Below, piece after piece: positions 7,406-52,992 of a stretch of 64,000 nucleotides of DNA; the first letter of the stretch is position 1; every line of letters starts with the position of its first letter. Below the pieces are notes generated by a model. It worked only from the letters and a program-made list of their open reading frames with translations. It ran no database searches and was not told where the DNA came from. A program made the position numbers and the translations under genes. The DNA is taken from IMG/VR virus record IMGVR_UViG_3300030343_000012; one strand, 5' to 3'. The DNA is from a virus.

Positions 7406-7906
7406 TCAATTACGAACTCCAGTGTGCCCATAACCACCTTCTCCACGTTCCGTTTTATCGAGTTCGTCAACTAATGTAAATTCAGCTTGTTCACATTTAT
7501 AAATAATACCTTGTCCAATTTTATCTCCCTGCTGTATTGTAAATGGCTCAAATCCATTATTCTGTACAATAAGACCAATGTCTCCACGATAATCAGCATC
7601 TATAACTCCGAAAGAATTAGCCATAGTTACTCCTTTCTTGAGACCAAGACCACTTCTAGTTACAACAGCTAACATATATCCTTCTGGAATAGCCATATGC
7701 AAACCCGTAGGAATTAGAGCACGACCTCCTGGATGAATTGTAATCTCAACAATCATCTTATTTATATTACGTAAAAAGGAGCAGTTCCAAGTAAGCTTTT
7801 CCTTTACTTCAGTTACATTGGCACAGAAATCAAATCCAGCAGAGCCAGATGTTGCGTATTTAGGAAGGTCATTATTAGACTCATTAATTACAGGTACTTT
7901 CAACAT
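7406..7906 (-). CDS. dut: dUTP diphosphatase (trimeric dUTPase)
   Basis: All five dUTPase motifs are present: AGFDF, VVTRSGLGLKKGV, GVIDADYRGDIGLIV, GDKIGQG and RGEGGYGHTG. Confidence 0.93.
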   Translation of the reverse strand: MLKVPVINESNNDLPKYATSGSAGFDFCANVTEVKEKLTWNCSFLRNINKMIVEITIHPGGRALIPTGLHMAIPEGYMLAVVTRSGLGLKKGVTMANSFGVIDADYRGDIGLIVQNNGFEPFTIQQGDKIGQGIIYKCEQAEFTLVDELDKTERGEGGYGHTGVRN

Positions 7907-8650: not shown

Positions 8651-8888
8651 TTAAATAATCAACACATTCATCATAAAGAGTATCTAATCCGTCATCCCAG
8701 TTAATATCTCCAAATGTTAATCCTAAAGAGCTTAAATAAGCTTCTATAAGACTATGGATATGGTCATCTATATAATTCATTAAATCCTCGTTAGAGAGTG
8801 AACCACACTGAGGATAATAGGACTTTATATAATCAATAAAATCTTCTACTTTTACCTCTTCATAAAGGTCAAGATTTATATATGCCAT
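8643..8888 (-). CDS. hypothetical acidic protein
   Basis: ORF in the array. Confidence 0.5.
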   Translation of the reverse strand: MAYINLDLYEEVKVEDFIDYIKSYYPQCGSLSNEDLMNYIDDHIHSLIEAYLSSLGLTFGDINWDDGLDTLYDECVDYLND

Positions 8889-9592
8889 TCTTCAATTTTA
8901 TTGGTTTCTGTGTTTAACACAAATGGTTTGCAGCAATCTAACATAGCATACTTATCTGTAATTAAAGGCTTGGTTCTGCCTCCCCAAGTATGCCCAAATA
9001 TTTGATAATAGTCTTTATATGGAGTTTGTATCTGAAAGTCTTCTAGACTATTCCAAACGCAAGAACCATAAATATTATATCCTCCTCTAGAGTATGGAAT
9101 TTGGTCTAAAGGACTAAGATTAGTTATATCTATATTATTTAAATCTTTTAATTCTAGATTATTACAAACTAACCAGTCCCCAGTAATGCCTGCATGGGAG
9201 AATAAGTATTTATGAGGTTCTTTAGTAGTCAAATCTTCATATATGTAATATAATTGAGGACTTAAGCCACTAATTAACTCTTTTACTTCTTTTTGTTGCC
9301 AATAATCAAATCTACATTTACCATTTCCATTGAAATAGCTTAAATCGTGATTACCTAATAAGCATATAACATCAGAAGTATGGCGTCTATTCTCTACAAA
9401 AGCAGCTAATTCTCTAAGATTAGCTAAAGATACCGCTTTATCAGGTTCTCCATCTACGTATTCTCCATAAGGGTCATGGTAATCCCCTAAGAATACTATT
9501 TTACCTGTCCAATTATTGCATGGTTCTTTCCAAAAACCACGACCATGAATATCCGGGATTACTAATATTTTAGTCACACAAATATTGTTCAA
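8876..9592 (-). CDS. calcineurin-like metallophosphoesterase
   Basis: Motifs PDIHGRG, LGDYHD, GNHD and GHTWGG. Confidence 0.75.
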   Translation of the reverse strand: MNNICVTKILVIPDIHGRGFWKEPCNNWTGKIVFLGDYHDPYGEYVDGEPDKAVSLANLRELAAFVENRRHTSDVICLLGNHDLSYFNGNGKCRFDYWQQKEVKELISGLSPQLYYIYEDLTTKEPHKYLFSHAGITGDWLVCNNLELKDLNNIDITNLSPLDQIPYSRGGYNIYGSCVWNSLEDFQIQTPYKDYYQIFGHTWGGRTKPLITDKYAMLDCCKPFVLNTETNKIEEWHI

Positions 9593-19183: not shown

Positions 19184-20208
19184 TAAAGAGAATATCCTTT
19201 ATAGCAAATTAAATATGCTACATGACGTAACAAGGTTCCTAACTCATACATACCTTCTTGTATTTCCTTATTAGTTACAGGTCTAACTTTAGTATAGTAT
19301 TGTGGAATAGTAGATACTACTAAATAATTAGCCTTTATTGAAGGTTTTGATATATTGTATTCCTTTGCTACATACAAATTTAATAGGTATAAATATTCAG
19401 CTAATTCCCTACTATAGTGATATCTATTGATATTATCATCGATAGCAGACACTACTTTACTAATAGTTTTAACATCATTTACAGTAATAATGTCTTGCTC
19501 CGTATCAATGGTAAAATTATCAAGTTTAGCTTTTAAGTGTAATATGGTTTTCTTACCATTAGCACATTCAGCCTCTATATCTAATAGGAATGCTTGTTCA
19601 TTCATAGAAAGAGGAGGATCTAAGAGTCCTGAAGGATTAAGTAACTCTTGAATTTGTGGATTCTTAGTTAATGCTTCTACACAATTATATACAGTATCAC
19701 GACTTTTATCATCTAAATAGATAAGTTCCTTGGTACTATTTAATTGTGCATTCTTTCTAGCTTTCCAATATGGAATACATTGCTCATTCACCCTTTTAAT
19801 AATATCTGGAGTGAGCTTATTTTTATAGTAATTAACCTTACTTGAAGCTTCTTCAATATCAGAGGTTCTAATAGGATGTTGTAACCATACTGGATAAAGT
19901 TCATCTGCCATAGCTCCTAGTTTAGCAGTAGGTTTTCCTAGAGCAGGAGCAAGTTCAAAACTCTCATCCTGCAAAGTGAGACAATGAACTGCAGAACCTA
20001 TAACTAAACTAGAAACAAATCCTTCGTCTTTGAACCCTGCAAAGAAAGCATCTGTTGAACCTCCTTGAAATGGATTAAGTAATCCTAACCTTGAATTACT
20101 TATATAACTTCCATATTTAGAAGAGAAATACTCTGCATCATCAATTTTAACTAATTTAAGAGTGTCAATTAATGGAGTAAGTTTAACTATGTCTCTTAAT
20201 TTTGCCAT
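19183..20208 (-). CDS. hypothetical protein (weak resemblance to a PD-(D/E)XK/YqaJ-type exonuclease)
   Basis: VIGSAVHCLTL resembles a G.SA motif and acidic/Lys residues follow. The call is weak. Confidence 0.45.
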   Translation of the reverse strand: MAKLRDIVKLTPLIDTLKLVKIDDAEYFSSKYGSYISNSRLGLLNPFQGGSTDAFFAGFKDEGFVSSLVIGSAVHCLTLQDESFELAPALGKPTAKLGAMADELYPVWLQHPIRTSDIEEASSKVNYYKNKLTPDIIKRVNEQCIPYWKARKNAQLNSTKELIYLDDKSRDTVYNCVEALTKNPQIQELLNPSGLLDPPLSMNEQAFLLDIEAECANGKKTILHLKAKLDNFTIDTEQDIITVNDVKTISKVVSAIDDNINRYHYSRELAEYLYLLNLYVAKEYNISKPSIKANYLVVSTIPQYYTKVRPVTNKEIQEGMYELGTLLRHVAYLICYKGYSL

Positions 20209-20756
20209 TCTAAGACATTTAACTCATTCATATATGCATCTAGGATTTCTTCATAATCTAAATTATAAATGCGAAATTCACACTCCACATTTTGATTGTG
20301 TGGTCTATCAATAAGAAGGGCAGGTAATCCACTCTGTATAGCCTTAGTTACATTAAATAAACTATCATCTATAAGAACATCACATCTTCCCTTTATTATA
20401 TCAGCTTTATTACCATTTTGATTATAAGTCTGATAAATGGGTTTTATTGGCAAACCATTTTTAATTAAAGAATTACGAGTGTAACTCTTTTGATTTATAC
20501 GTTTAGTTGAGTAAATATGAGGTTCAAAATTAGGACGCTCTAATAACTCTAGATTTTCCCAAAATTCTCTATCATACTGTAACTTACGTACATTTCTGGT
20601 AATTATATGTTGCACTAAATTACGTTCACCAGGAAAACGCTTTTGATAAGCCTCAAACCACTTTAAAATGGTATCATCTATATCTAGTGCAATACGTAGG
20701 TTATTCATATTCTTCAATTTCATGAATGCTTCCCAAGAAAATATCGTGATTATCAT
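20196..20756 (-). CDS. HAD-superfamily hydrolase (5'-nucleotidase-like); start probably MNNLRIALDIDDT at ~20708
   Basis: HAD motif I LDIDDTIL is present, with a later LIDD. Confidence 0.55.
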   Translation of the reverse strand: MIITIFSWEAFMKLKNMNNLRIALDIDDTILKWFEAYQKRFPGERNLVQHIITRNVRKLQYDREFWENLELLERPNFEPHIYSTKRINQKSYTRNSLIKNGLPIKPIYQTYNQNGNKADIIKGRCDVLIDDSLFNVTKAIQSGLPALLIDRPHNQNVECEFRIYNLDYEEILDAYMNELNVLEWQN

Positions 20757-35905: not shown

Positions 35906-36588
35906 TCTAATTGTATTTTTTGAATTTCATTGGATTCCAAACTTTTTATATAATTATATACCCTACTAAGATTCCCTTCACTAAATAGAGTTTTATTACT
36001 AAAGATTAATATCTTATATAGATTTATAGCCTGTATAAAACTTACTTTATTTTCTTTTAGATATTTAGTAAATATAGTATTAAATCCGCAAGATTGCTTA
36101 AAATATTGCATGATTGCTTGTTTAAGACACTTTATTTCTGAATTTGACCAGTAATCTTCTTTCTTTTTAAATATCCTATTTGTTGCAGAATCCTTTATAG
36201 GTCTTGGTATATATAAAGTTTCTGGTAAAATTAATTCATCCTTCTTAACAGCTTCAGCAAATGTTATAGTCGAAGTACTTAACAATTCATTAACTTGTGC
36301 ATAATGTATTATAAAGTCTATAGTATTAGAAGCATTAATTATCATAATCTTAGCACTTCCTCTTATAAATACAGCATAGTTAATGGAATCAAATACAGAA
36401 GATTTAATTATTTGTAATTCCCCAGTACTTTGCTTTGCCATATGGTCTGAATATCTAATCTCTAAGTTTTTATAATAGAAATATAAAGAATTACTAGTCT
36501 GTCCATTGTCTTTTAATGTACAATTAGTCCATAACCATTTTTCAAGTTTGTTCATTTCTTTTAATCTGTTAAGTATTAATCTATACAA
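35902..36588 (-). CDS. hypothetical protein
   Basis: ORF in the array. Confidence 0.5.
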   Translation of the reverse strand: MYRLILNRLKEMNKLEKWLWTNCTLKDNGQTSNSLYFYYKNLEIRYSDHMAKQSTGELQIIKSSVFDSINYAVFIRGSAKIMIINASNTIDFIIHYAQVNELLSTSTITFAEAVKKDELILPETLYIPRPIKDSATNRIFKKKEDYWSNSEIKCLKQAIMQYFKQSCGFNTIFTKYLKENKVSFIQAINLYKILIFSNKTLFSEGNLSRVYNYIKSLESNEIQKIQLE

Positions 36589-36693
36589 AAATAGCTCACC
36601 TAAATTAATAGATGAGCTATATACTACAAGTAGGTTGACTTTGTAATAGGATCTTATTCTCTACCATTACTAGTTCTCTACTTTATTAATTAG

Positions 36694-36777
36694 TTGTCTA
36701 GGAGAGATTCGAACTCCCGAAGCTAAATAGCAGCTGATTTACAGTCAGCCGTGTTTGACCACTTCACATACTAGACA
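36694..36777 (-). tRNA. tRNA-Tyr (anticodon GTA), class II with a long variable arm
   Basis: Folded by hand: acceptor TGTCTAG/CTAGACA, anticodon stem GCTGA/TCAGC with loop CTGTAAA, variable hairpin GCTA-TT-TAGC and T-arm GGGAG-TTCGAAT-CTCTC. Confidence 0.7.
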
Positions 36778-36795
36778 ATAAATTTTTTTATAAGT

Positions 36796-36864
36796 TGCGG
36801 ATGTTCGATTCGAACGACTACTCTAGGTTATGAGCCTAGTATGTTACCATTACACCACATCCGC
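36796..36864 (-). tRNA. tRNA-Met-like (anticodon CAT; could be initiator, elongator or Ile-lysidine type) with a shortened T-stem
   Basis: Acceptor GCGGATG/CATCCGC, D-stem GTGT/ACAT and anticodon stem CTAGG/CCTAG with loop CTCATAA. The T-loop TTCGAAT is flanked by only a 3-bp stem, giving 69 nt in total. Confidence 0.45.
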
Positions 36865-37043
36865 GATATATTGTTTTAAAGAATTTTCGGCGGAGCAAAG
36901 TCTTTAAGTACCATCTATCGATGACTTTTTATAAGGTTCTCTTAACCTTCGACATGACTATATTATGAGTAACGTTACCTCTCTTTTCAATGCCCCTTGA
37001 GTTAAAATACTTCTTTGGTACATGCTCCATATTAAATATAAAG

Positions 37044-37115
37044 AGCTTCAAGTAGGATTTGAACCCACGACCTGCACTTTACAAGAGTGCTGCACTACCA
37101 CTGTGCTATTGAAGC
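37044..37115 (-). tRNA. tRNA-Thr (anticodon TGT)
   Basis: Acceptor GCTTCAA/TTGAAGC, D-stem GCAC/GTGC, anticodon stem GCACT/AGTGC with loop CTTGTAA, and T-arm GTGGG-TTCAAAT-CCTAC. Confidence 0.8.
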
Positions 37116-37260
37116 TAAAATAAAGACGAATATGGCATTAGACGGGTGAACTATCATGACCATATTCTAATAATACATTGAGCTATCAGGCATACTCGTG
37201 GATCACCACCGCTACCTCTAACAACCGCCTAGTTAAATGCTAGGTCCTCTCCATTATTTG

Positions 37261-37333
37261 TGGACCGTGTCGGACTTGAACCGCAATGATTGCTTGCAAA
37301 GCAATAGTGTTAGCCAGTTACACTACACAGCCC
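37261..37333 (-). tRNA. tRNA-Ala (anticodon TGC) with G3:U70 pair and a shortened T-stem
   Basis: Acceptor GGGCTGT/ACGGTCC includes a G3-T70 wobble, the Ala identity element. D-stem GTGT/ACAC, anticodon stem ATTGC/GCAAT with loop TTTGCAA. T-loop TTCAAGT has a 3-bp stem and there is one extra nucleotide in the 8-9 linker. Confidence 0.5.
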
Positions 37334-37349
37334 ATTTCTAGTATTTTTG

Positions 37350-37426
37350 CGGAATATAAGGGACTCGAACCCTTAGTTTTACTAGAGTGACAGTCTAGTT
37401 CCCTTACCAACAGGGCTTAATACTCC
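37350..37426 (-). tRNA. tRNA-Asp (anticodon GTC)
   Basis: Acceptor GGAGTAT/ATATTCC (one G-U), anticodon stem CTAGA/TCTAG with loop CTGTCAC, and T-arm AAGGG-TTCGAGT-CCCTT. Confidence 0.65.
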
Positions 37427-37717
37427 AGGCGCCTCTTGTGTACACATTTCTTTTCGAGAAGGTAATGAACCTTAGAAATAAGAGGCATATATTTAAATTT
37501 ACTCTTCCAACATCAGTAAGTACCCATTTGGCACTTACTAGTAGAAATCTAATTAGATTACTGTAAAAGGCAATACTCGATAATCTCTAACATCATACCA
37601 AGCTGCTACAGTTTTCATTCCTTTCCACCATGATTTGATAATTCTTTTCATACAGTTTAAAATTTAATTGTTAATTAAATAATCTAATTGTATAGAAGGA
37701 AGAAGAAGTAAACATCG

Positions 37718-37789
37718 TGCAGAAAACCGGATTCGAACCGACAAATCCTGCTTGGAAGGCAGGCATGTTACCATTAACACCATTTCTGC
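37718..37789 (-). tRNA. tRNA-Gly (anticodon TCC)
   Basis: Acceptor GCAGAAA/TTTCTGC, D-stem GTGT/ACAT, anticodon stem CCTGC/GCAGG with loop CTTCCAA, and T-arm GTCGG-TTCGAAT-CCGGT. Confidence 0.75.
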
Positions 37790-38079
37790 ATTAAAAATTC
37801 ATTTATTAACTTAACAAGTCAACAGTATATTGAATTACTGAAATTAAATAGTTAATAAATATTAAATATATATTTATAGTAATACCCATATAGATAGTCT
37901 TTGCCTTAAACGGCAAGTTCTCTACGAGAACAATATAAGAGCATTTCCTTCTCTCCAAGTTAAGAAATGTTAAAAATTCTAAACAGAGATTAAGAAATGC
38001 TCTCCACCTAAATAATCACACTACTTTACAGATGGATGACTATTTGTAGGTGTTGTCTCACTAAAATAATTATCTGTTT

Positions 38080-38472
38080 TCATAATTTAATCTTGTTAAT
38101 AAATTCATTATATTTATCAATAAATTCTTGCTCTGTAATTATATCGCCTCTATTAGCCAAAGTTAAAGATTCTTCGCAATATGAAATAGAACCAAATTTG
38201 TTAGATTCTCTCAAGTGTAATTCTAGAACAGTACAGTTACATTCATTAACCGAAATGATTTTATACCAATACATGTCTTCACCATAATCACAATATCTAT
38301 ATCTATTTTTGGATAATTCAGCCTTCAATATTGTATCTTGTATCTCACTTTGTTTAACTAATAGGTCAGCTATCTGTTTACTTATATCTTTTAAAGTTTC
38401 AGAATTAGTCATTAAATAACTTTTCAATAGATTTCTTATAATCTGAATTCTTATGTACGAAATACAGAGCAC
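38080..38472 (-). CDS. hypothetical protein
   Basis: ORF in the array. Confidence 0.45.
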   Translation of the reverse strand: MLCISYIRIQIIRNLLKSYLMTNSETLKDISKQIADLLVKQSEIQDTILKAELSKNRYRYCDYGEDMYWYKIISVNECNCTVLELHLRESNKFGSISYCEESLTLANRGDIITEQEFIDKYNEFINKIKL

Positions 38473-38626
38473 ATATAGTATTTATTAGAGGGCATAATAC
38501 TATAAATAAAGTTAGCAAATTTATTTCTACTTTCTTAAGGTCCATGCGATAACTAATGTAGAAGCAACTTGCAAGATATATTACTATGCAAATAAGTCCT
38601 ATAATAAGTAACTCTCCAAAACTCAT
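38405..38626 (-). CDS. small membrane protein (2 TM)
   Basis: Hydrophobic 73-aa ORF whose start overlaps the PurA-like stop. Confidence 0.4.
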   Translation of the reverse strand: MSFGELLIIGLICIVIYLASCFYISYRMDLKKVEINLLTLFIVLCPLINTICALYFVHKNSDYKKSIEKLFND

Positions 38627-39807
38627 AATTCTTTAATATCAGAATCTTCAGACTTTCCTAGATATATATCATTTATAATACAATTACTTGTACGTAATTG
38701 TTCTATAAAACGTATTATACCGATAATTCTTGGAGATTTATCTTGATAATCACATATAGTAGGAATGTACTTAGTCTTAAGGCAATCCCAATGAGTTATG
38801 ACAATGTTAAACTTACAATGATATGTCTCACTATAATTATCTAAACAATGTCTTTCTACAGCTCTTTTAAACAAAGGATAGTCAAAAGGACCTGTTTTAA
38901 ACTCTCCTTGTGGTCCATCGTTAGTATTTGATGGTTCTTCTAGAGTAAAATACATTCCTAAGTCCATAGAATAAGGATTGTATCCATTTCCATGTCTAGT
39001 TAAATATGGACGCATAACTAAGTATACTTCTGCATTTTCTAGACACTTCTCTGGGATTCCATTTAATCCTACTTTACTAGGAGTACAGTGAGGCATAAAT
39101 CCTCTTTCCATATCTAGAAGAAGACCTTGTGAACCCTCCCAAATAACAGTATCAACCTCATCAGGATAATAAGTTCCGATTATAAAAGTCTCAGGATGTT
39201 CTTTAATAAAGGTACAAGCCTCTTTAAAAAGATCATCTAGTTTAGTGTCCCGTTCTAGATTATGATAATCCCTTACAGTCTGTAAAGCTACATCTGCATA
39301 TTCATCTGTATAAGGACACATACGAGCACTATAAGTTACATTATCTTTGTTTCTTTTAAAACAAGCATGTATACCTTTACCACAAGTTCCATTATACTTC
39401 ACTCGTCCATCCATAGAGTCAGCTAATACATCATAAGGTGTAATAACTCTACAGTTAGGATTTATATATAACTTAGGAACTTCAATACCCTCACTAACTA
39501 AGACTTTATATTCATTATAAATACATATTGGGTCAATGAATACTTCCTTATATAAGCAAGTTGGTACTCCTAGCAAAACACCGCTTCCCCAAGAAGAACA
39601 TACGTGTGATTTACCTTTATAAACCACACGATGACCGGCTTGTGGACCTCCACTAAATCTGATGACAACAGGTTTGTAACTATTCATACATAGCCATTGT
39701 ACTACATTACCCTTACCCTCATCACCAAATAGAGATCCAAGTACTATTTGATTACGAATTTGTTTGCTGTCCATAACTGTTAGAAACAATACGAGCAATA
39801 GATTCAC
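38623..39807 (-). CDS. adenylosuccinate synthetase homologue (PurA/PurZ-like); start probably MDSKQIRN at ~39774
   Basis: N-terminal NQIVLGSLFGDEGKGNVV matches the PurA P-loop NVVVLGTQWGDEGKGK. WEGSQGLLLDMERGFMP matches PurA EGAQGTLLDIDHGTYP. Length ~380 aa. Confidence 0.7.
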   Translation of the reverse strand: MNLLLVLFLTVMDSKQIRNQIVLGSLFGDEGKGNVVQWLCMNSYKPVVIRFSGGPQAGHRVVYKGKSHVCSSWGSGVLLGVPTCLYKEVFIDPICIYNEYKVLVSEGIEVPKLYINPNCRVITPYDVLADSMDGRVKYNGTCGKGIHACFKRNKDNVTYSARMCPYTDEYADVALQTVRDYHNLERDTKLDDLFKEACTFIKEHPETFIIGTYYPDEVDTVIWEGSQGLLLDMERGFMPHCTPSKVGLNGIPEKCLENAEVYLVMRPYLTRHGNGYNPYSMDLGMYFTLEEPSNTNDGPQGEFKTGPFDYPLFKRAVERHCLDNYSETYHCKFNIVITHWDCLKTKYIPTICDYQDKSPRIIGIIRFIEQLRTSNCIINDIYLGKSEDSDIKEL

Positions 39808-40564
39808 CTACATGCTCTTTATCTGAAATAATAAGATTGTCTCCTACATAAGGCTTCCAACTATCTGAAACCCTTTCTACACTATAATAACCATCATGTT
39901 CTACATGAATGTGATAAATATCCCACTTCTCAGCGCACTCTCTGTAAATGAAAGAGGTAGCTAAATCTTCACTACACTCATCACCTATATAATGAGTTAC
40001 TGCTTCTTTAGGAAGAGTTTTATGAATTGGCTCATCACTAATTGTGATTAAACAGCCTTTAATACCTCTTTTCTCCAGAGCATCGGTCTTAATATGATTA
40101 GCAGCGAAGTACCAACACATATGAGGATCTTCTCCTCCATTGCCACCTCCTTTACCTTCAAGGTCAACTTTACGGAGCCATTTCTCCATAAGTTCATCAC
40201 TTGATTCAAACTGTCCTACTTGTAAAGGAGCCTCTTCATAACAGCCCTCTACATCGCCAAATGCCATAAAACAGATTTGAGGATTATCAATACCTGCCTT
40301 CATAATACTAGCTACACAATCTGGTAAAGTATTATCAATAAGATATTTAGGCACTTTACCCATAGAACCAGTCTCATCCAAAGCAATAATGATAGGGAAT
40401 GATTCTGGGTGTTCTTCAGAATCACAAGACTCTCTGAAATTAATGTTAAGAGGATTCATTTCAGGGTCTAACTTTTTCTTGCTGAATGTCTTTTCAATAG
40501 ACTGAGATCTGTAACTATGACTTCTAGCTACAGCATCATTATACGAATAACTACCACATCCCAT
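39752..40564 (-). CDS. von Willebrand factor A (vWA) domain protein, TerY-like
   Basis: MIDAS-like IIIALDETGSMG (DxTGS) about 60 aa from the N-terminus; ~270 aa with a Rossmann-like hydrophobic periodicity. Confidence 0.55.
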   Translation of the reverse strand: MGCGSYSYNDAVARSHSYRSQSIEKTFSKKKLDPEMNPLNINFRESCDSEEHPESFPIIIALDETGSMGKVPKYLIDNTLPDCVASIMKAGIDNPQICFMAFGDVEGCYEEAPLQVGQFESSDELMEKWLRKVDLEGKGGGNGGEDPHMCWYFAANHIKTDALEKRGIKGCLITISDEPIHKTLPKEAVTHYIGDECSEDLATSFIYRECAEKWDIYHIHVEHDGYYSVERVSDSWKPYVGDNLIISDKEHVGESIARIVSNSYGQQTNS

Positions 40565-41625
40565 TACGCTTCCTCCTTTGCTTGTGATTTAATATTACTA
40601 GCTAATGCACTAACTAAAGCATTTACATTATCTGTAAGTGCATCTACCTTAGCATTAATTTTATCTAATTCCGATGGTTCTGAAGTTTCAGTAGCAGGTT
40701 TGCTTGCTGCACCAAACATATTACCAAACATATTACCACCTCCCATAAGCTGACTCATCATCATCATAGTCATAAAATCAGAACTATTATTATCAGCGAG
40801 AGCCATAAGCATCATAGGATTGAATCCCTTACCTGCATTATTAAATAGTCCACCACCATTCATAGCAGACATCATAAGCAGATTCTTAACATCAAATTTA
40901 TTTCCACTCATATAAGCAAGAGCAAGTGGATTAAATCCATTAGAAGAATCAAAGTTAAATGGATTGACAATAACTCTAAATGTTGCAGAACCCATCAACT
41001 CATCTTCAATAGCAATCTTATTGTTAATATTGCCATTAAAGTTCATAATCTTGATAGAACCATCTTCTGCTTTAGTCTTAACTACACCATAAGACCTGCC
41101 TGATTTTACAATATCTCCGATTACAATTTGATCAGAGTTCTTGCTAATATTGTAAATACAAGGCATAGGGAAAGTCATCTTATACTTCTTGAGTTTACCT
41201 GCCGGAGAAACGCCTACGTATGCACCGTCACTATTCTTAAAACAAAGAACACCATCAGTGATACTGATTCTAGCACTCTCCTCAGCCTGTGGCATAAACT
41301 CATTATACATATCTTTAGTTAAATCTCCAAAGACATTATCAACATTCATTTTTCCAAATTGTTCCATACTTGAAATATTTTTACTTATAGTATTAATTTG
41401 TTTACCATTAATCTCAGAAATTGTTACCGTCTCATAACTTTCTTGTTCTCTAGAACTTGCATAAGTCCAGACAACTTGAAACTTACTGTCATAACCTACA
41501 AGTTGTACTAAATCACCTCTTTTAAGCCCAGGACACTCATTAGCTACTATATAAGGTACAGTAGTTTCTGAATTCATTCTAGTAGGACTTAATTTAGTAT
41601 TTGTAAATATACCTCTAATTACCAT
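40564..41625 (-). CDS. hypothetical protein with a Gly/Met/Asn-rich low-complexity C-terminal region
   Basis: The C-terminus carries repeated NGGGLFNNAGKGFNPMMLMALADNNSSDFMTMMMMSQLMGGGNMFGNMFG. Confidence 0.5.
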   Translation of the reverse strand: MVIRGIFTNTKLSPTRMNSETTVPYIVANECPGLKRGDLVQLVGYDSKFQVVWTYASSREQESYETVTISEINGKQINTISKNISSMEQFGKMNVDNVFGDLTKDMYNEFMPQAEESARISITDGVLCFKNSDGAYVGVSPAGKLKKYKMTFPMPCIYNISKNSDQIVIGDIVKSGRSYGVVKTKAEDGSIKIMNFNGNINNKIAIEDELMGSATFRVIVNPFNFDSSNGFNPLALAYMSGNKFDVKNLLMMSAMNGGGLFNNAGKGFNPMMLMALADNNSSDFMTMMMMSQLMGGGNMFGNMFGAASKPATETSEPSELDKINAKVDALTDNVNALVSALASNIKSQAKEEA

Positions 41626-41627
41626 AA

Positions 41628-41855
41628 TTATAAACTATTAAGTATGCTTTTATATCTATCTAAATATTTAGAACCTAATGCAGACATTATTTTATAAAAT
41701 CCTGACCTAAATCCATCATCAGAACTAACTAATTGTTTTATGCTCTTTATATAATAATCAGGTATATCAGATCTACATTCATGTTGCATTAAGTTCCTAG
41801 CTAGTGCCATTTTATTTAATATTTCACCAGCTGCCTTAGCTTTATCTTCAGTCAA
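41628..41855 (-). CDS. hypothetical protein
   Basis: ORF in the array. Confidence 0.45.
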   Translation of the reverse strand: MTEDKAKAAGEILNKMALARNLMQHECRSDIPDYYIKSIKQLVSSDDGFRSGFYKIMSALGSKYLDRYKSILNSL

Positions 41856-41918
41856 GTTTAAATATAACTAAATATACTAATAAAAAGACCAAAGCTACTC
41901 CTAGAATATCTATAAACA

Positions 41919-42068
41919 TTCAAATAGCTCTAATAGATTTAAATGGATAACGTTTCTGATCATAGCTACTAATGAAGTTTTCTTTTACTTTAGCTTCATT
42001 AATACCTGTAAGTCTAATGGTTTGTTCTTTGTTTTTTAAAGAATCAAAATAAGTTACTTCAAATTTCA
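41919..42068 (-). CDS. small hypothetical protein (~49 aa, MKFEVTYFDSLKNKEQ...)
   Basis: Fills a 210-bp gap; below the ORF-track cutoff. Confidence 0.3.
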
Positions 42069-42473
42069 TATAAAAGATTCTCTATTATTAAATTTATTTT
42101 GAGCATCAAGTACTCCTTCTTTATCTGTAATATCTACAATAAGTCCTATTTGTCGTAACCAAACATCAAATGGACCACTGTACCCTAGGTCACCAACCCA
42201 ACCTCCTTTACAAAATACTATTTTCTTCCAAACAAAAATAGCACATAATATCCCATCAACTTCACATAAATGTTTGCCTTCTGGAATATCTAGGAATGTT
42301 GGAGCTAAACCTACTCCCTCTCGATAATATTTAGATATTCGAGTATGAAATACATCATCCTGCATAACTACTGCATCTGTCTCATAATTAGTAGACAATT
42401 TACCATGCAAATAAAAATCAGGCTGATAAATCCAATTCTCGTTTCGACTACTTAATGGCTTAAATTTAATCAT
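42066..42473 (-). CDS. hypothetical protein
   Basis: ORF in the array. Confidence 0.5.
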   Translation of the reverse strand: MIKFKPLSSRNENWIYQPDFYLHGKLSTNYETDAVVMQDDVFHTRISKYYREGVGLAPTFLDIPEGKHLCEVDGILCAIFVWKKIVFCKGGWVGDLGYSGPFDVWLRQIGLIVDITDKEGVLDAQNKFNNRESFI

Positions 42474-42574
42474 TTATGTTTCTTTTTCCATCGAAACCAT
42501 AAACCTAATACAATACCAATTATAAACCAAACTAGTATTGTAATAATAAAGGTTCCAATATTAAGTACAATCAT
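42472..42574 (-). CDS. very small single-TM peptide (~34 aa, MIVLNIGTFIITILVWFIIGIVLGLWFRWKKKHK)
   Basis: Lies immediately downstream of, and co-oriented with, the P-type ATPase. It has a hydrophobic helix followed by a basic tail. Confidence 0.35.
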
Positions 42575-42625
42575 AATCTAATATTTATAGAGAGGGCTAG
42601 CTATTAACCAGTCCTCTCTCGTTAA

Positions 42626-45085
42626 TTACTTGAATAACTTTTTAGCCCAATACAGGAGTTCTCTACAAACTGGTACAATTGCAGTAAGACCTACAATCTC
42701 CAACCATGTTTCAATACTTAATGGCTCTGTTCTGAACACATCGCCACCAAATTGAACTATCAAAATTTGACCAATAAATATAACCAAACATATTCCAATA
42801 AATGCAGGATTACTTAACAAACCATTAAAGATACTTCTGTCTTGTCCAAATACTCTTGCATTAAACAAGTTCCAGAATTGTAACATAACAAAAATAGTGA
42901 AGAACTCTGTAAGGCTATATGTATTACTAATCAGCAAATATAATAATATGCCGAAATACAAAATACCTACACCAAAGATTTCATACCACATTCTCTTTGT
43001 GATAATAAATGCCTTAGGATCACGTGGCTGTTCAGACATTACTGCTTCATTAGCTGGTTCTGTAGCCAATGCTAAAGCAGCAAAAGTATCCATAATTAAG
43101 TTAACCCATAGCATTTGGATAACAGTGAATGGTAAGTCTACCCCAATAAATGGACCTACACAAGCAATACCAATAGCTACAACATTTACAGTAAGCTGGA
43201 AAAGAATAAAGTGCTGAATATTCTTATACAAGCTTCTTCCCCACTTAACTCCTAAGATAACAGAAGGGAATGAATTATCAAGAAGAATAACATCAGCTGC
43301 ATTCTTAGCAATATCAGTACCATTATTCATAGCTACACCTACTTCAGCTTGGTTAAGAGCAGCTGAATCATTAGTTCCATCACCAGTTACAGCTACTACT
43401 TCTCCCATTCTCTGGAATCTCTTAACAAGTGTCTGCTTGTCTTCAGGTTTAGTTCTGGCAAATACATCTACTTTACGTAAATTAGTATCTGTCTGAGCTT
43501 CGACTTCCTTACCAAGCATTGTGTTAGGAGTCTGAGAGATATTAGCTTGAGCAGCGATAGAAGCAGCTGTTTCAGGATTATCACCTGTCACAATCTTAAC
43601 TTTAATTCCTGCGTTTCTAGCAGCCTGAATTGCATCAGGTACATTACTTCTTACTGGGTCTTCGATAGCTACGTAGCCATCCCATATGAAGTCTGAGAGG
43701 GTATTTATATCAGAACCAATCTTGTGTGCAAAAGCAATACATCTTCTGCCTTTAGATTGTTGTTCTGCAAAATTAGGTATGTTCTCATTAGAGCAGAAAT
43801 TCATTACTATTTCTGGAGCTCCCTTAATATAAGTAACTGCTCCATCACTAGTAATCATATATTTATTCTTAGAATTAAATTCTACTCTACCTGTTATATG
43901 AGTTTTATTTCTTTTATCGGTGATGTCAACTGACTTTTGTACATATTGCAGACAAGCACCCTCTGTAGGATTTCCTACTACTTCTCCTGCAGGACTAAGA
44001 TTAGCAGTAGAATTAAGTACAATATTATTTATGACAGCATTTCTATCTGTAAAGTCCTGGAATACTACTTTCATTTTATTCTCTGTAAGAGTTCCTGTCT
44101 TATCAGTAAGAATAAGAGTTGTAGCACCGAGAGTTTCACAAGCATGCATCTTTCTAATAAGGTTATTAGCTTTAGCCATTCTCTTCATAGAATAAGCAAG
44201 AGCAAGAGTTACCGCCATAGGTAAACCTTCTGGTACTGCTACTACAATAAGAGCTACTGCAATCATTAAGAATTGTAAGCAATCATTTACAATATCAATA
44301 GTATCTTTGCCTACATATCCTTGCTCTATAAATATATAACGTATAGCAAGAGACACAATAAGGATACCTGCAGCTGTGAATGCTATCTTATTAATTAAGC
44401 TAGCTAATCCATTAAGCTGTTTATTAAGAGGTGTTTCTACATCAGTAATAGAAGATGCTTCTCTAGCAGTCTTACCTACTTCTGTTTCATCTCCTACTGC
44501 AAATACTTCACCTACACAAGTACCCTCAGCTACAATAGTGCTTTTATAAATTCTATTTGTAGGATAGGTAGCAGTCTCTGATTCAAAATTAGTTTTAGTT
44601 ACAGGATTTGTTTCTCCAGTTAAAGAAGCTTCACTTACCTTCAAATTGCTATATTCTCTAACAATAATATCGGCAGGAACTTCTTCACCAGCTTCAAGTA
44701 TTACAATATCCCCTACAACTAAGTCTTTACGAGCTACTTGAATTACTCCATTATCTCGTCTTACCTTAACTAGAGTATCATCACTACTAGTTAAAAGAAG
44801 GTCAAACTTTTTAGCTGCTGACCAGGTATTCCAAAAACCAATACCTACAGCTAAAGCAATGGCTACAATAATACCAATAGGCTCTGTAAATTCACCCTTT
44901 ACAAATCCTAAGGCAATAGATACTGCAGCTGCAATAAGTAATATTACAATAAGTGGGTCTTTAAATCCATCAAGTAACATTACATACCAAGCATCTCTCT
45001 TCGGAGGTGTCAATACATTAATGCCATGTCTAGCACGTGAATCTTCTACTTCTGTTAAGCTAAGACCGTAATTTATATCTGTCAT
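42626..45085 (-). CDS. P2-type cation-transporting P-type ATPase (Ca2+-ATPase-like)
   Basis: Phosphorylation site DKTGTLT, TM4 PEGLP (VPEGLPMAVTLALA), TGDN (VTGDNPETAA) and hinge GDGTNDSAAL. About 10 predicted TM segments, no CPC metal motif, 819 aa. Confidence 0.9.
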   Translation of the reverse strand: MTDINYGLSLTEVEDSRARHGINVLTPPKRDAWYVMLLDGFKDPLIVILLIAAAVSIALGFVKGEFTEPIGIIVAIALAVGIGFWNTWSAAKKFDLLLTSSDDTLVKVRRDNGVIQVARKDLVVGDIVILEAGEEVPADIIVREYSNLKVSEASLTGETNPVTKTNFESETATYPTNRIYKSTIVAEGTCVGEVFAVGDETEVGKTAREASSITDVETPLNKQLNGLASLINKIAFTAAGILIVSLAIRYIFIEQGYVGKDTIDIVNDCLQFLMIAVALIVVAVPEGLPMAVTLALAYSMKRMAKANNLIRKMHACETLGATTLILTDKTGTLTENKMKVVFQDFTDRNAVINNIVLNSTANLSPAGEVVGNPTEGACLQYVQKSVDITDKRNKTHITGRVEFNSKNKYMITSDGAVTYIKGAPEIVMNFCSNENIPNFAEQQSKGRRCIAFAHKIGSDINTLSDFIWDGYVAIEDPVRSNVPDAIQAARNAGIKVKIVTGDNPETAASIAAQANISQTPNTMLGKEVEAQTDTNLRKVDVFARTKPEDKQTLVKRFQRMGEVVAVTGDGTNDSAALNQAEVGVAMNNGTDIAKNAADVILLDNSFPSVILGVKWGRSLYKNIQHFILFQLTVNVVAIGIACVGPFIGVDLPFTVIQMLWVNLIMDTFAALALATEPANEAVMSEQPRDPKAFIITKRMWYEIFGVGILYFGILLYLLISNTYSLTEFFTIFVMLQFWNLFNARVFGQDRSIFNGLLSNPAFIGICLVIFIGQILIVQFGGDVFRTEPLSIETWLEIVGLTAIVPVCRELLYWAKKLFK

Positions 45086-45106
45086 TTTTTCTGTTATTAT
45101 AATTAA

Positions 45107-45733
45107 TTAAAGAAATGAAATTGTTGGACGCTTCATAGCATCAATTGAAGTCCAACCTCCGAACTCACCAACTGCCTTAAAGCGCCATTCACCATCCTTT
45201 TTATAGGCAACACCAAGGATAACTGCCTGCTTATCAGAAATCTTAGTACCTTCCTTACCGTCTTCAAGATTAAACTTAGCTAAGACATTTACAGGAGTAT
45301 TAGTGTTTCTCTGTACTCTATCACCTGTATAAATACGAAGACCCATATAAGGAATCTCACCAAATGTCTGGTGTGTAAAGTTATTGAGAGTAAATGCAAT
45401 ATACTCAACACGTGGGTCAAGCTCATTTAAGCGTACCTCAATAGTCTCATTATCAAGACCATCATTACCATTTGTATCACCCGAACGATCATCACCACTA
45501 TGACGAATACCTGGAGCACTTAAATTGTAATAAGCTACTTCGCCAATACAATTCTTATTAGCATCATACAGAAGAACAGTAGAATCCAAATCTACCTTCT
45601 CGATAGAACCGCCAATGCCAAATAAACCCTTACGTCTGATAGCTCCCCAGTTTGAACCAAAGAATAATTTACTCAAACCATTGTTAGACTCTTTAGACAG
45701 ATTGATTCTGCCACCTTTACTTAAATTAATCAT
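45107..45733 (-). CDS. TerD-domain protein (Ca2+-binding, tellurite-resistance TerD/TerE family)
   Basis: SGDDRSGDTNGNDGLDNETIEV matches the TerD Ca-binding signature GDNxTGEGDGDDE. N-terminal INLSKGGRINLSK is also typical. Confidence 0.75.
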   Translation of the reverse strand: MINLSKGGRINLSKESNNGLSKLFFGSNWGAIRRKGLFGIGGSIEKVDLDSTVLLYDANKNCIGEVAYYNLSAPGIRHSGDDRSGDTNGNDGLDNETIEVRLNELDPRVEYIAFTLNNFTHQTFGEIPYMGLRIYTGDRVQRNTNTPVNVLAKFNLEDGKEGTKISDKQAVILGVAYKKDGEWRFKAVGEFGGWTSIDAMKRPTISFL

Positions 45734-45844
45734 AAAGCTTTATTAAATAATTGTGAATTACTAATTAACTAAAAATGGGAGTACCTAATTAAAGATACTC
45801 CCTTATAGAATCAAGAATTAAAACCGAATTAATTTATCAATTAA

Positions 45845-46447
45845 TTAAATAGCTGGGGCATCTGGCAAGATGAGTCCATAGTTACGAAGAATATCACGAT
45901 AGATAACATTCTGATAACTACCCTTGTCTTCTCCAAGAGCCTTGAACTTCCAATCACCATTGTGGCGATAAAGTTGGCAGAATACAACACAGCGAGACAT
46001 ACTTGCATCCTCAGTAAGATCAAACTTAGCCAAAGGAGTAGTGTTACCTTTAGCATACAAGTTGCAATAAGCATTGTTAACCATACCAAAGTTCTGCTGA
46101 CGATTCTTAGCATCGTGAATATTAACTAAGATGATAATTTTCTGGACATCTGCAGGAACCTTAGTAGTGTCTACTACAATTGTCTCATCATCTCCAGCAC
46201 CAGCACCTGTACGGTTATCACCTGAATGCTTAATAGCATCTTTCCAATTTGGGTTATTGTAGAAAATGAAACCATTGTCAGGATCTACTGCTTTATCCTG
46301 AGCATTCAAAGGAATAGTAGCTACATCCAAGTCAAATTCTACACCTGCCTGGGATGCTACATCCCAACCCAAACCAATTGAAAACTCTGTTACACCATTT
46401 GCTTCTTTAGCGAGGTTGATGTTACCTCCTTTACTTAATTGAATCAT
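45845..46447 (-). CDS. TerD-domain protein (paralogue)
   Basis: IQLSKGGNINL and HSGDNRTGAGAGDDETIVVD match the TerD signature. Confidence 0.75.
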   Translation of the reverse strand: MIQLSKGGNINLAKEANGVTEFSIGLGWDVASQAGVEFDLDVATIPLNAQDKAVDPDNGFIFYNNPNWKDAIKHSGDNRTGAGAGDDETIVVDTTKVPADVQKIIILVNIHDAKNRQQNFGMVNNAYCNLYAKGNTTPLAKFDLTEDASMSRCVVFCQLYRHNGDWKFKALGEDKGSYQNVIYRDILRNYGLILPDAPAI

Positions 46448-46461
46448 AATTGTGAATTGAA

Positions 46462-46653
46462 TTAATATTTACCGCAAAATTTACGGCTAATTATAGTCAT
46501 AACTTTATCATAAGTTAACTTTTTAGCTTCCTTCTCAGAATAACCTTCTATAATATAAGAATCTACTATTTTCTCAATTGCAGCATTCATTTCAGAGAAT
46601 AAGTATTTTTGTTCTTTAGTTAACTTATCATCATATAAATAAGATTTATTCAT
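46462..46653 (-). CDS. hypothetical protein
   Basis: ORF in the array. Confidence 0.45.
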   Translation of the reverse strand: MNKSYLYDDKLTKEQKYLFSEMNAAIEKIVDSYIIEGYSEKEAKKLTYDKVMTIISRKFCGKY

Positions 46654-46912
46654 CTACTTGTAAATCAGCCTGAGTACTTTCTATATAATCTTTTACATCT
46701 AAGTCTGTAATAAGATTAACTAAGTCTCCAACAGTCTTTAGATTCTGAACTTTATCATCTGTGATAGGATAACCAAACTCCTGTTCACACTCAGTAATAA
46801 TCTCTACTAAATCAAGACTGTCTGCATACAAATCATCGAAAGTATCTTCACTCTTGGCATCTACACCTAGTTCTTCATTAATTATATTAATGACCCTTGT
46901 TTCTATACTCAT
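46646..46912 (-). CDS. acyl carrier protein
   Basis: DDLYADSLDLVEIITECEQEFG contains the phosphopantetheine-attachment DSL motif in a ~88-aa acidic four-helix-type sequence. Confidence 0.7.
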   Translation of the reverse strand: MSIETRVINIINEELGVDAKSEDTFDDLYADSLDLVEIITECEQEFGYPITDDKVQNLKTVGDLVNLITDLDVKDYIESTQADLQVDE

Positions 46913-49723: not shown

Positions 49724-50872
49724 TTAATATATCTGATTAAGCTTACCTGAAGCACTTGAAGTGTATCCAGATTTAATTATATAAATATTAAAATTACATA
49801 AACTGGTTACAACGTAACGCTTTTGAGGGTCTATGTAGAATATAGTACGATCGTCAAACTCTTCTCCTATTTTGAGATACTTTATCTCCTTATTAGATAT
49901 AATAGTATCTGTGCGCATATAAGTGCCCTCCAGGACTTTCTTAGCTTCCAATTCTCTCTCAGAATATTCTTTAATAGGCTTTCCTGCAGCTTGGCACACT
50001 ATTTCTCGACTTTCGACTATCTTATCAAAGAGTTGTCCATCAATATGAGGACTATTCCTTAATAATCCATCTCTTAATTCTAGAGATTCTACAAAATAGG
50101 TAAAATTAGAGAACTCAAGATTAAAGTCTCTACGGATTGCCTCAATTTTGTCTTTACCATGAATATTAACTTCCTGAGCAAGAGCTTTTACTAGATCAAC
50201 AGTAATTATCTGCATCTGTCTAATTAAGTCTAGTACTGGCTCTATTGCATCTTTGTCAATTAAAATATCATTAAGTAATTCAAGTGTAGTTTCTTCAGGT
50301 AGATTACCAAAAGAACGTACATATCTAATACGTGATGGGCGACCTAACAAATTATTATTAATTTCCAACTCATTAGTGGTAAGTAGAAATATTTTACGAT
50401 ATTGTGAATTGTGAACACCGTCCATAAAAGAGAGAACTGATGAAGATTCCCTAAATTCTTTTTCGTATTCATCAAAGAAGAAGATACAGTCAAAGTTAAT
50501 TTGAGTAGCTAAGAATTTAAGCATATCATTTACTTCTTTACAGGATTTAACAATAATAACTGGAAGTCCGATACGATTACAAAGCTCTTCTGCAGTAACT
50601 GTTTTACCTGTTCCCTTGATACCATTAAATAATACTCCTAAATTACCTGTAGTATTATTGTAAGTTTTTACAAAATGATCAATAAACTCACTATTAATAC
50701 CATACAATTTGTAATTAAATACAAAAGAATCTCCAAGTCTATTTAAATAATAACCTGTCATTGATTCTTTAACTTCATAAATTCCTTTAGGCAATCCTTC
50801 AGGATGTGCTTTTGTTGTGGCACTACCCTTCACAAAAGTATTACCATCTTGAATCCAAATGTTTTGTTCCAT
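49724..50872 (-). CDS. AAA+ ATPase
   Basis: Walker A GIKGTGKT and Walker B CIFFFDEYE. Confidence 0.6.
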   Translation of the reverse strand: MEQNIWIQDGNTFVKGSATTKAHPEGLPKGIYEVKESMTGYYLNRLGDSFVFNYKLYGINSEFIDHFVKTYNNTTGNLGVLFNGIKGTGKTVTAEELCNRIGLPVIIVKSCKEVNDMLKFLATQINFDCIFFFDEYEKEFRESSSVLSFMDGVHNSQYRKIFLLTTNELEINNNLLGRPSRIRYVRSFGNLPEETTLELLNDILIDKDAIEPVLDLIRQMQIITVDLVKALAQEVNIHGKDKIEAIRRDFNLEFSNFTYFVESLELRDGLLRNSPHIDGQLFDKIVESREIVCQAAGKPIKEYSERELEAKKVLEGTYMRTDTIISNKEIKYLKIGEEFDDRTIFYIDPQKRYVVTSLCNFNIYIIKSGYTSSASGKLNQIY

Positions 50873-52492: not shown

Positions 52493-52620
52493 CCGGTGGA
52501 GCATTGGAGAGTCGAACTCCAGTCACTCCGATTTGCATCAAAACATTCTTACAGCATAGGTTTTAAAGACTATCCTTGTCTGCTAGGGTTGACAAGATTA
52601 ACATATTGTCAACTTCCACC
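52493..52620 (-). ncRNA. tRNA-like structured element: T-arm TGGAG-TTCGACT-CTCCA plus an acceptor-like helix, 128 nt end to end, not a canonical cloverleaf
   Basis: Minus-strand sequence GGTGGAAGTTGACAA...GGAGTGACTGGAGTTCGACTCTCCAATGCTCCACC. GGTGGA pairs with TCCACC at the ends. An internal 7-bp hairpin TTGACAA/TTGTCAA is present. A local minihelix GGAGTGA/ATGCTCC plus T-arm is also possible. It sits in a ~740-bp region with no convincing CDS. Confidence 0.3.
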
Positions 52621-52992
52621 ACTCTGTTCCTAAAGTATACAGAGAACTTACAAAAGAAATGGAAAATAGTGCACCTTTCTGTTCCTAAGCAAGTGCTGCT
52701 CGGCTTCTCAGGCTGCGATAGCGTAAGAAGCGGAAGTGTTATTTACTTCGCCAATTAATTTTTTACTTGTCTATCCAAGTTGTCTTGCTGTGTTCCTTAT
52801 CTCCTCGAAGTTCAAAACCACGAATGCCCCATTTAAAAGAGTCCTAATAGAACTCTTTAATATCTTCTGATTCTTCTACTATATGGAGAACCCATATCAT
52901 ACCAATCATCTGGATCTATTCTATCTTCGTCACCCATAATCTAAAAATTAATTAATGTTAAAAACTATATGTTAATCTGTTTCTTTTCGGAA

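Follow-up and report, generated by a model that had tools for sequence, protein, structure and literature searches.

A divergent PurA-type protein paired with a vWA-domain partner in large phages and bacterial chromosomes

Whether a relative of adenylosuccinate synthetase (PurA) encoded by a phage marks a genome that makes 2-aminoadenine (Z) DNA, supplements host purine synthesis, or serves another chemistry is the question raised by a gene on the minus strand of IMG/VR virus record IMGVR_UViG_3300030343_000012, of which 64,000 nucleotides (nt) were analyzed (hereafter, the window). The original prediction for this gene, made from the sequence of the window, was a PurA/PurZ-like protein possibly engaged in Z-base or nucleotide-analog synthesis. 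Its product is a member of a distinct, large, and uncharacterized branch of the PurA superfamily, neither PurZ nor ordinary PurA, and its gene adjoins that of a conserved protein with a von Willebrand factor A (vWA) domain. We favor, at a probability of roughly 0.6, a PurA-type ligase dependent on guanosine triphosphate (GTP) that has a changed second substrate and works as a unit with this partner. The two genes are as follows:

38623..39774, minus strand: predicted PurA-like GTP-dependent ligase, 383 amino acids (aa), likely ATG start
39752..40564, minus strand: conserved partner with an integrin-beta-I-like vWA domain (by fold search), 270 aa

The PurA-like protein and its active site

The longest reading of the PurA-like open reading frame (ORF; 38623..39807, minus strand) begins with GTG and encodes 394 aa. 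The likely start codon is an ATG at 39774-39772, favored because the resulting 383 aa match the length of the database homologs P0003, P0008, and P0012 (P-numbers denote database homologs, and L-numbers the phage and bacterial loci compared). This ATG falls 23 nt within the 3′ end of the upstream partner gene, whose stop codon occupies 39754-39752. Both motifs on which the original prediction relied, FGDEGKGN and WEGSQGLLLD, were found in the translation, and its placement of the protein in the PurA superfamily was upheld by Pfam PF00709 (E=8.1e-35, covering profile positions 1-319 of 416), by PHROG 1211 (E=3.8e-43), and by phmmer matches to bacterial PurA structures (5e-20; PurZ0, 7vf6, reached 1.4e-3). 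When an AlphaFold model (predicted local distance difference test score, 88; predicted template modeling [TM] score, 0.90) was compared with known structures using Foldseek, the 31 best PDB matches were all canonical long-form PurA, at TM scores of about 0.7. The gene is a genuine relative of adenylosuccinate synthetase with the PurA fold, its homology lying far above chance. A protein with 100% identity over the 383-aa match is encoded by IMG/VR contig IMGVR_UViG_3300045988_075357 (188,124 bp).

It is not, however, a routine PurA. The protein scored 104 bits against NF002223 and 93 bits against TIGR00184, about a quarter of the NCBIfam equivalog cut-offs (402 and 395 bits, respectively), and differs from canonical PurA (EC 6.3.4.4; e.g., E. 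coli PurA, PDB 1ADE/1CG0) in being only about 20-27% identical. Residues were counted in an alignment of 84 phage and 58 bacterial family members with E. coli PurA (n=142; all PurA-like positions follow E. coli PurA numbering); an earlier alignment had joined 116 close family members with the E. coli protein. The catalytic elements of PurA were retained: the P-loop G12-D13-x-G15-K16-G17 is kept, with Asp13 in 140/142 members (the remaining two are gapped there, and the window protein reads GDEGKG, hence Asp13 is present), as are His41 and Gln224, the latter within EGSQGLLLD (each in 142/142), Thr239 (139/142), and Asp333 (140/142). In the (N/T)KxD guanine motif, Thr330 and Asp333 are kept and Lys331 is replaced by His or Cys. 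Canonical PurA likewise combines the long-form fold with GDEGKG, His41, Gln224 in an EG(A/S)QG block, Thr239, and Asp333. GTP use by the clade is likely on this pattern and, because the GTP-binding and phosphotransfer core is kept, the first half-reaction of PurA (i.e., GTP-dependent 6-oxo phosphorylation) looks preserved.

The L-aspartate site, in contrast, is changed throughout the family. Arg131, Thr300, Thr301, and Arg305 are positions that we take, from E. coli mutagenesis and structures, to bind aspartate; Arg131 is replaced by Val, Leu, or Lys; Thr300 by Phe, Tyr, Trp, or Pro; Thr301 by Gln (140/142); and Arg305 by Phe (128/142). Two residues that are presumably ligands of the 5′-phosphate of inosine monophosphate (IMP) are also altered, Thr129 being replaced by Cys and Arg143 being unconserved. 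Arg303, which in PurA contacts both the IMP 2′-OH and the aspartate substrate (PMC8342488), is deleted in 142/142 members. Further changes are Val273 to His (142/142), Asn38 to Gln, and Gln34 to Ser. As judged from the alignment, the second-substrate pocket would be more hydrophobic than that of PurA and lack its arginines, the aspartate site apparently having been rebuilt, and because of this rebuilding the nucleotide-analog synthesis named in the original prediction comes close to the reading favored here. Together, these residues give the clade a signature: GD(E/A)GKG, Q38, H41, C129, EGSQGLLLD, T239, TRHG (containing His273), Q301-G, the Arg303 deletion, F305, and T-(C/H)-x-D333.

The vWA partner and the variable third gene

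The partner gave no Pfam, NCBIfam, or PDB match in sequence and profile searches, the Pfam vWA models included, and belongs to PHROG 2971, a family of unknown function. It was identified through fold search alone, which revealed a Rossmannoid vWA fold with the vWA domains of BchD and NorD among the structural matches. The metal ion-dependent adhesion site (MIDAS) of vWA domains is defined by two elements, a DxSxS-type motif following strand 1 and an Asp following strand 4 (PMC7159879); in the partner this site is intact, formed by D63-x-T65-x-S67 and D177, and the corresponding strands of the model span 56-63 and 170-176. In a set of 142 representatives, one per cluster at 50% identity, conservation is 100% for D63 and S67, 99% for T65, and 98% for D177, and several more acidic positions (D104, E120, and E145) are invariant. 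The N terminus is also conserved, as M-G-x-[GST]-x-[YWF], with Met-Gly in 133/141 representatives and Tyr, Trp, or Phe at position 6 in 126 of those 133. An exhaustive hidden Markov model (HMM) search placed 1,340 clusters at 50% identity in the partner family (E<=1e-10).

The linkage of the two genes was examined in 86 phage loci, comprising 80 IMG/VR loci (from at least 551 confirmed relatives), three metagenomic contigs, and three cultured phages. A complete PurA-like ORF was present in 84 loci (L038 and L059 end inside the gene), a partner ORF likewise in 84, and both in 82. The partner lay upstream, on the same strand and within 1.7 kb, in 79 of the 82, and the two genes abut or overlap in 46. 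L030 was the sole phage locus outright without a partner, and in L028 a distance of 8-10 kb separates the two genes. The cultured carriers are Vibrio phage phiKT1024, Rhizobium phage RHph_TM2_3B, and Mycobacterium phage TinyTim (gp260/gp261), with BLAST values to the window partner of 2e-56, 4e-43, and 1.5e-29, respectively. A scan of prokaryotes with the partner as query (one genome per species) returned at least 572 stretches, complete chromosomes included, from Flavobacteriaceae, Sphingobacteriia, Myxococcota, Planctomycetota, Gammaproteobacteria, Spirochaetota, and others, and the PurA-like gene followed the partner in all 57 bacterial loci in which both ORFs were called. The pairing is near-obligate, and often overlapping, in large phages and in bacteria. 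In high-GC bacteria the order may be partner-partner-PurA-like or partner-PurA-like-partner; apparent fusions of the two proteins in these genomes were rejected, the long ORFs being artefacts. The bacterial proteins bear only the public names "adenylosuccinate synthetase" and "hypothetical / VWFA domain-containing protein", and a full-text literature search found no paper joining PurA or adenylosuccinate synthetase with vWA or with anti-phage defense; PurA is unmentioned in a survey of Ter genes in jumbo phages (PMC7824862) and in a survey of vWA conflict systems (PMC7159879). PADLOC gave no match for the PurA-like protein, the partner, their neighbors, or the TerD genes described below.

Several individual loci depart from the simple arrangement. 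In these relatives, some close and some distant, the partner is cut down to its last 33 codons (L013, 9922-10020), an insertion of about 1.2 kb interrupts it (L024, 7906-9917), or 1.3 kb lies between it and the PurA-like gene (L015, 8712-10034), which suggests mobile insertions at the locus; the database homologs P0132, P0133, and P0167, with partial coverage and odd lengths, fit this pattern.

In the window, the pair lies in a tight run of five genes with overlaps of 1-23 nt. The other three are as follows:

38405..38626, minus strand: 73-aa ORF, apparently a small two-helix membrane protein by its hydrophobic stretches
40564..41625, minus strand: 353-aa clade-specific protein with a Met/Gly-rich coiled-coil C terminus and no known family
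41628..41855, minus strand: 75-aa ORF ending 2 nt before the 353-aa gene

The stop of the 353-aa gene overlaps the partner start by 1 nt, and this gene remains beside the partner in L028. The 75-aa ORF, conserved in close relatives only (10 cluster members), appears to open this tight operon. The 73-aa ORF overlaps the PurA-like stop by 4 nt and has a similar small ORF as counterpart after the PurA-like gene in L001; its membership in the module is uncertain.

Neighbor statistics were compiled over 65 dereplicated phage groups, and in 52 of these the slot directly upstream of the partner held one of three unrelated, mutually exclusive genes. The first, in 36 groups, encodes a helical protein of about 116-135 aa, whose phage HMM also matched 43/43 bacterial copies (from Flavobacteria and others); none was found in the window (best HMM E=0.33), and hhalign gave a probability below 1% for any relation of this family to the 353-aa and 75-aa families. 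The second, in eight groups, is a Hanks-type kinase-like gene, also present in Myxococcus, a deltaproteobacterium, a planctomycete, and TinyTim (gp259); examples are L006 3823-4896 (gp259), L043 7422-8309, L148 2483-3505, and L163 4908-5891. The best PDB match of these proteins is PknB (1e-7), with a Pfam Pkinase match of 1.2e-9 for gp259. HRD is replaced by HGA in these proteins, and in those from bacteria the Asp of DFG is missing as well, so that they may be pseudokinases. Their N termini are weakly J-domain-like with an HPD motif in phages and a zinc ribbon in bacteria. The third gene, in eight groups, encodes the 353-aa protein specific to the clade of the window, a protein that is a possible third component of the module because it occupies the slot of the small helical or kinase-like protein elsewhere. 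In the phage group with the kinase-like gene, an R2K-clade ATP-grasp gene and an ATP-dependent DNA ligase gene follow the PurA-like gene (11 loci in eight groups; e.g., L043 11507-13418).

Two further observations concern the bacterial relatives. In Flavobacteriaceae (L090-L134; e.g., L109 5648-8007), sequences of the small protein and of the partner cluster at or above 90% identity across many genera (Polaribacter, Mesonia, Winogradskyella, Formosa, Maribacter, Zunongwangia, and others), identity that implies either recent horizontal spread or very strong constraint. Their neighbors include SUKH-1/SMI1_KNR4, DUF1266, DUF6892 with DUF7738, and HD_4 proteins, which may hint at a variable conflict or immunity region or reflect shared synteny, and which were not used as evidence. 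The closest "bacterial" relatives of the pair (L100, L116, L123, and L130) are contigs of metagenome-assembled genomes (MAGs) of Prevotellaceae/Bacteroidales from gut and rumen, which suggests either that the host belongs to the Bacteroidales or that phage contigs were binned with MAGs; the window itself encodes a crAss001_48-related protein at 980-1243.

Possible functions of the pair

In the reading that we favor, the PurA-like enzyme would activate an IMP-like nucleotide by GTP-dependent phosphorylation of the 6-oxo group, and the activated carbon would then be joined to some nucleophile that is not free aspartate and that suits the more hydrophobic pocket. The partner, through its MIDAS metal, may recruit, present, or regulate the second substrate or a protein target, and the lineage-specific third protein (i.e., small helical, kinase-like, or 353 aa) could complete the module and adapt its inputs or targets. 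Since the aspartate site is lost and the vWA neighbor is almost constant, the product is probably not adenylosuccinate. PurA chemistry on purine analogs other than IMP is known from PurA homologs of nucleoside-antibiotic pathways (e.g., ToyG of toyocamycin biosynthesis), which provides a possible lead. Z-DNA synthesis is not the pathway, and plain AMP (adenosine monophosphate) synthesis is improbable.

Several points weigh against this reading. Gene adjacency is no proof of a physical or functional complex, and covariation, computed over 95 dereplicated pairs, yielded only weak signals that are confounded by phylogeny (partner positions 105, 123, 128, and 148 with PurA-like positions of about 74-95), which were not used as evidence; in the same 95 pairs the partner N terminus was unlinked to the active site. 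The substrate assignment depends on alignment with E. coli PurA and on published mutagenesis of that enzyme and is correspondingly provisional; the loop alignments near 131, 143, and 298-306 could be shifted, though the model covers the fold confidently. Other residues, e.g., Lys/Arg306 or His273, could still bind aspartate.

One alternative is an ordinary auxiliary metabolic PurA that would boost AMP from IMP, aspartate, and GTP, with the PurB of the host finishing the pathway. Public records annotate these proteins in just this way, the retained catalytic core with its guanine-specific Asp333 and the PurA identity of all the best structural matches are as expected for such an enzyme, and the window also carries the nucleotide-metabolism genes NrdD and dUTPase. 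A PurB-like lyase gene was absent from the vicinity of the pair in about 166 loci, a result that fits dependence on the host enzyme and is also counted in favor of the main reading. We nevertheless consider an ordinary PurA unlikely, given equivalog scores at a quarter of the cut-off, the replacement of Arg131, Arg303, Arg305, and Thr300/301 across the 142 members, and the alteration of the IMP-phosphate positions Thr129 and Arg143. Nor would a metabolic role explain why the gene is so strictly tied to that of a vWA protein in different phyla, and the bacterial carriers are free-living taxa, in which a housekeeping purA would be expected.

A GTP-driven switch or chaperone, in which the PurA-like protein would be a regulatory NTPase that remodels or loads a client held at the partner's MIDAS, as MoxR does with its vWA co-chaperone, is a second alternative and is reminiscent of the MoxR-vWA ternary systems, BchI-BchD, and NorQ-NorD, in each of which a P-loop protein stands beside a MIDAS-bearing vWA protein and a variable third component. 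Pairs of this kind are a known theme (PMC7159879). The three mutually exclusive third components conform to it, recruitment of a chaperone is hinted at by the J-domain-like N termini that the kinase-like proteins have in phages, and retention of Asp13 and His41 would be expected of a pure GTPase too. The likeness is an architectural analogy only, the NTPase here being PurA-type rather than MoxR AAA+; no MoxR AAA+ ATPase lies beside the partner, the sole AAA match (49724-50872) being about 9 kb away. Against a switch stand the purine-nucleotide contacts that are kept (Gln224 in EGSQGLLLD, Thr239, and the TRHG loop) and, as the structural model indicates, the retention of the whole PurA fold, the nucleotide-substrate domain included. 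No PurA homolog is known to act as a switch, and we regard this explanation as improbable.

The surroundings of the pair in the window bear on a third alternative. The features concerned, together with the dUTPase gene, are as follows:

1310-1999 and 8876-9592: two calcineurin-like phosphoesterases
7406-7906: dUTPase-family gene
20196-20756: HAD-like ORF, 186 aa, with motif I "ALDIDDTIL" and a later "LIDDS"
42626-45085, minus strand: P-type cation (Ca2+-type) ATPase, 819 aa
45107-45733 and 45845-46447, minus strand: two TerD-domain proteins

The ATPase and TerD genes lie 2-6 kb upstream of the pair in the window, with the same synteny in L001, and might belong with it to a phage-borne Ter-type stress or exclusion system making the predicted nucleoside-like Ter metabolite; a role in making a Ter-type nucleoside metabolite was the alternative to Z-DNA named in the original prediction. 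Other lineages have a kinase-like gene ahead of the partner, and a vWA protein and a triad of vWA, kinase, and phosphatase are reportedly part of Ter systems. The arrangement seen in Myxococcota, Planctomycetota, TinyTim, and some metagenomic phages, with a vWA gene beside a Hanks-type kinase-like gene, resembles this TerY-P triad (TerY-type vWA, Ser/Thr kinase, and PP2C), and in the window TerD is near. It differs in that no PP2C was seen, HGA stands for HRD, the partner has no Pfam vWA match, and TerD is clade-restricted. Linkage to the pair was found in only 3/65 groups for TerD and 2/65 for the ATPase; the window ORFs scanned included the two TerD proteins and no TerB, TerC, TelA, PRTase (phosphoribosyltransferase), ATP-grasp, or PP2C; and the jumbo-phage survey of Ter genes cited above makes no mention of PurA. 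The phosphoesterases and HAD nucleotidase that had been placed at the same locus are present in the window but lie 29-37 kb and 18 kb away, respectively. Because the linkage is rare and the other genes are distant, the Ter reading describes at most a clade-specific association, and we hold it to be quite improbable as an account of the family.

Two side observations touch these genes. An acyl-carrier-like PP-binding protein joins the ATPase and TerD genes (42626-46912) in a calcium-flavored set that is unusual for a phage. The HAD-like ORF, the only one in the window, resembles 5′(3′)-deoxyribonucleotidases, with no Pfam match at E<=1e-3, and is probably the "HAD nucleotidase" meant in the original prediction.

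A more speculative variant would keep the predicted first half-reaction and assign the second to an undescribed conjugation, in which the activated IMP-like nucleotide would be attacked by the amine of a peptide that the vWA partner holds, to yield a protein-linked N6-substituted adenylate. A candidate amine is the partner's own N-terminal glycine, exposed after removal of the initiator Met (hence the interest of the Met-Gly start), and another candidate is an Asp- or Glu-containing peptide at the MIDAS site. We judge this conjugation very unlikely.

The weakest explanation, a PurZ or PurZ0 that converts deoxyguanosine monophosphate (dGMP) to the 2-aminoadenine precursor in a phage with Z-DNA, is extremely improbable and is refuted at the level of the sequence. 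PurZ/PurZ0 identity was rejected on Asp13, which is kept here, whereas Ser occupies this position in 100% of 147 phage PurZ/PurZ0 and Asp is kept in 99% of bona fide PurA (PMC12884076). The PurA-like protein scored 38 bits against the NCBIfam PurZ model NF038379 (cut-off 300); tblastn of the window with S-2L and phiVC8 PurZ did not find the gene, which E. coli PurA found at 1e-21; and in the Foldseek ranking PurZ0 came 32nd and PurZ structures 35th-43rd, below all 31 PurA. Asp333 is kept in the form T-H-x-D, and S-2L and phiVC8 PurZ have Gln or Asn there. The earlier statement that no DatZ/HD or MazZ gene is visible was confirmed within the 64-kb window, in which tblastn with S-2L and phiVC8 DatZ, MazZ, and DpoZ gave no match and no HD or MazG domain appeared among the window ORFs scanned with Pfam. 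Presence of the family in bacterial chromosomes also makes it a poor fit to a dedicated Z-DNA enzyme. What speaks for PurZ is the presence of a PurA homolog in a phage, the PurZ-type label of PHROG 1211, and the dUTPase-family gene, PurZ0 phages carrying the Dut-like DutZ (PMC12884076); dUTPases are common in phages, so that this gene is uninformative on Z-DNA. PurZ and PurZ0 (PDB 6FM1, 7ODX, 7VF6) do resemble the present family as divergent phage PurA homologs with an altered substrate pocket, and Phe stands at the Arg305 position in PurZ sequences of the alignment too. They differ in having Ser at 13, dGMP as substrate, and a short archaeal-type fold, as compared to Asp13 and the long-form fold here, and they travel with DatZ/MazZ/DpoZ or DutZ/DmtZ (PMC8342488, PMC12884076) rather than with a vWA partner.

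The wider window and the meaning of the module

The window derives from a large phage genome; its genes all lie on one strand, its GC content is 31%, and it carries NrdD, a DnaB-like helicase, ligases, and a sigma factor. Among deposited phages, megablast of window 36000-44000 against INPHARED found no close relative, only matches to the transfer RNA (tRNA) cluster, a region that is 94.9% identical to human-feces phage MT835492. The remaining features are as follows:

36693-37789: six tRNA genes (Tyr, Met, Thr, Ala, Asp, Gly)
52495-52830: transfer-messenger RNA, tag peptide GEVNNTSASYAIAA
57756-58088: protein with a Tad2-like (Thoeris anti-defense 2) domain, 110 aa (Pfam E=2.7e-16)

The first consequence of these findings concerns annotation. 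RefSeq and PHROG 1211 label Asp13-bearing relatives "2-aminooxy adenylosuccinate synthetase" (e.g., NC_031080, NC_054720, NC_070966), a PurZ-type label that is unsupported because the diagnostic residue of PurZ is absent, and that is probably a mis-annotation spreading through PHROG-based pipelines. The label wrongly implies Z-DNA for the cluster C mycobacteriophages whose records bear it (a group of about 200 Mycobacterium-phage records among those searched) and for Vibrio, Rhizobium, and gut phages. The second concerns the biology of the family. This large clade, with its testable signature, has apparently redirected PurA chemistry to another second substrate, making it a candidate for new nucleotide chemistry; if the conjugation variant were true, the pair and one of the three interchangeable third proteins would form a new nucleotide-tagging or signaling module common to bacteria and large phages. 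Cultured carriers include TinyTim and other cluster C phages, phiKT1024, Rhizobium phages, and isolates of Flavobacteriaceae and Myxococcus. A PurA-type enzyme, a MIDAS-bearing vWA protein, and three interchangeable third proteins constitute an undescribed module of phages and bacterial chromosomes, whose role could be in stress response, conflict between genomes, or host takeover.

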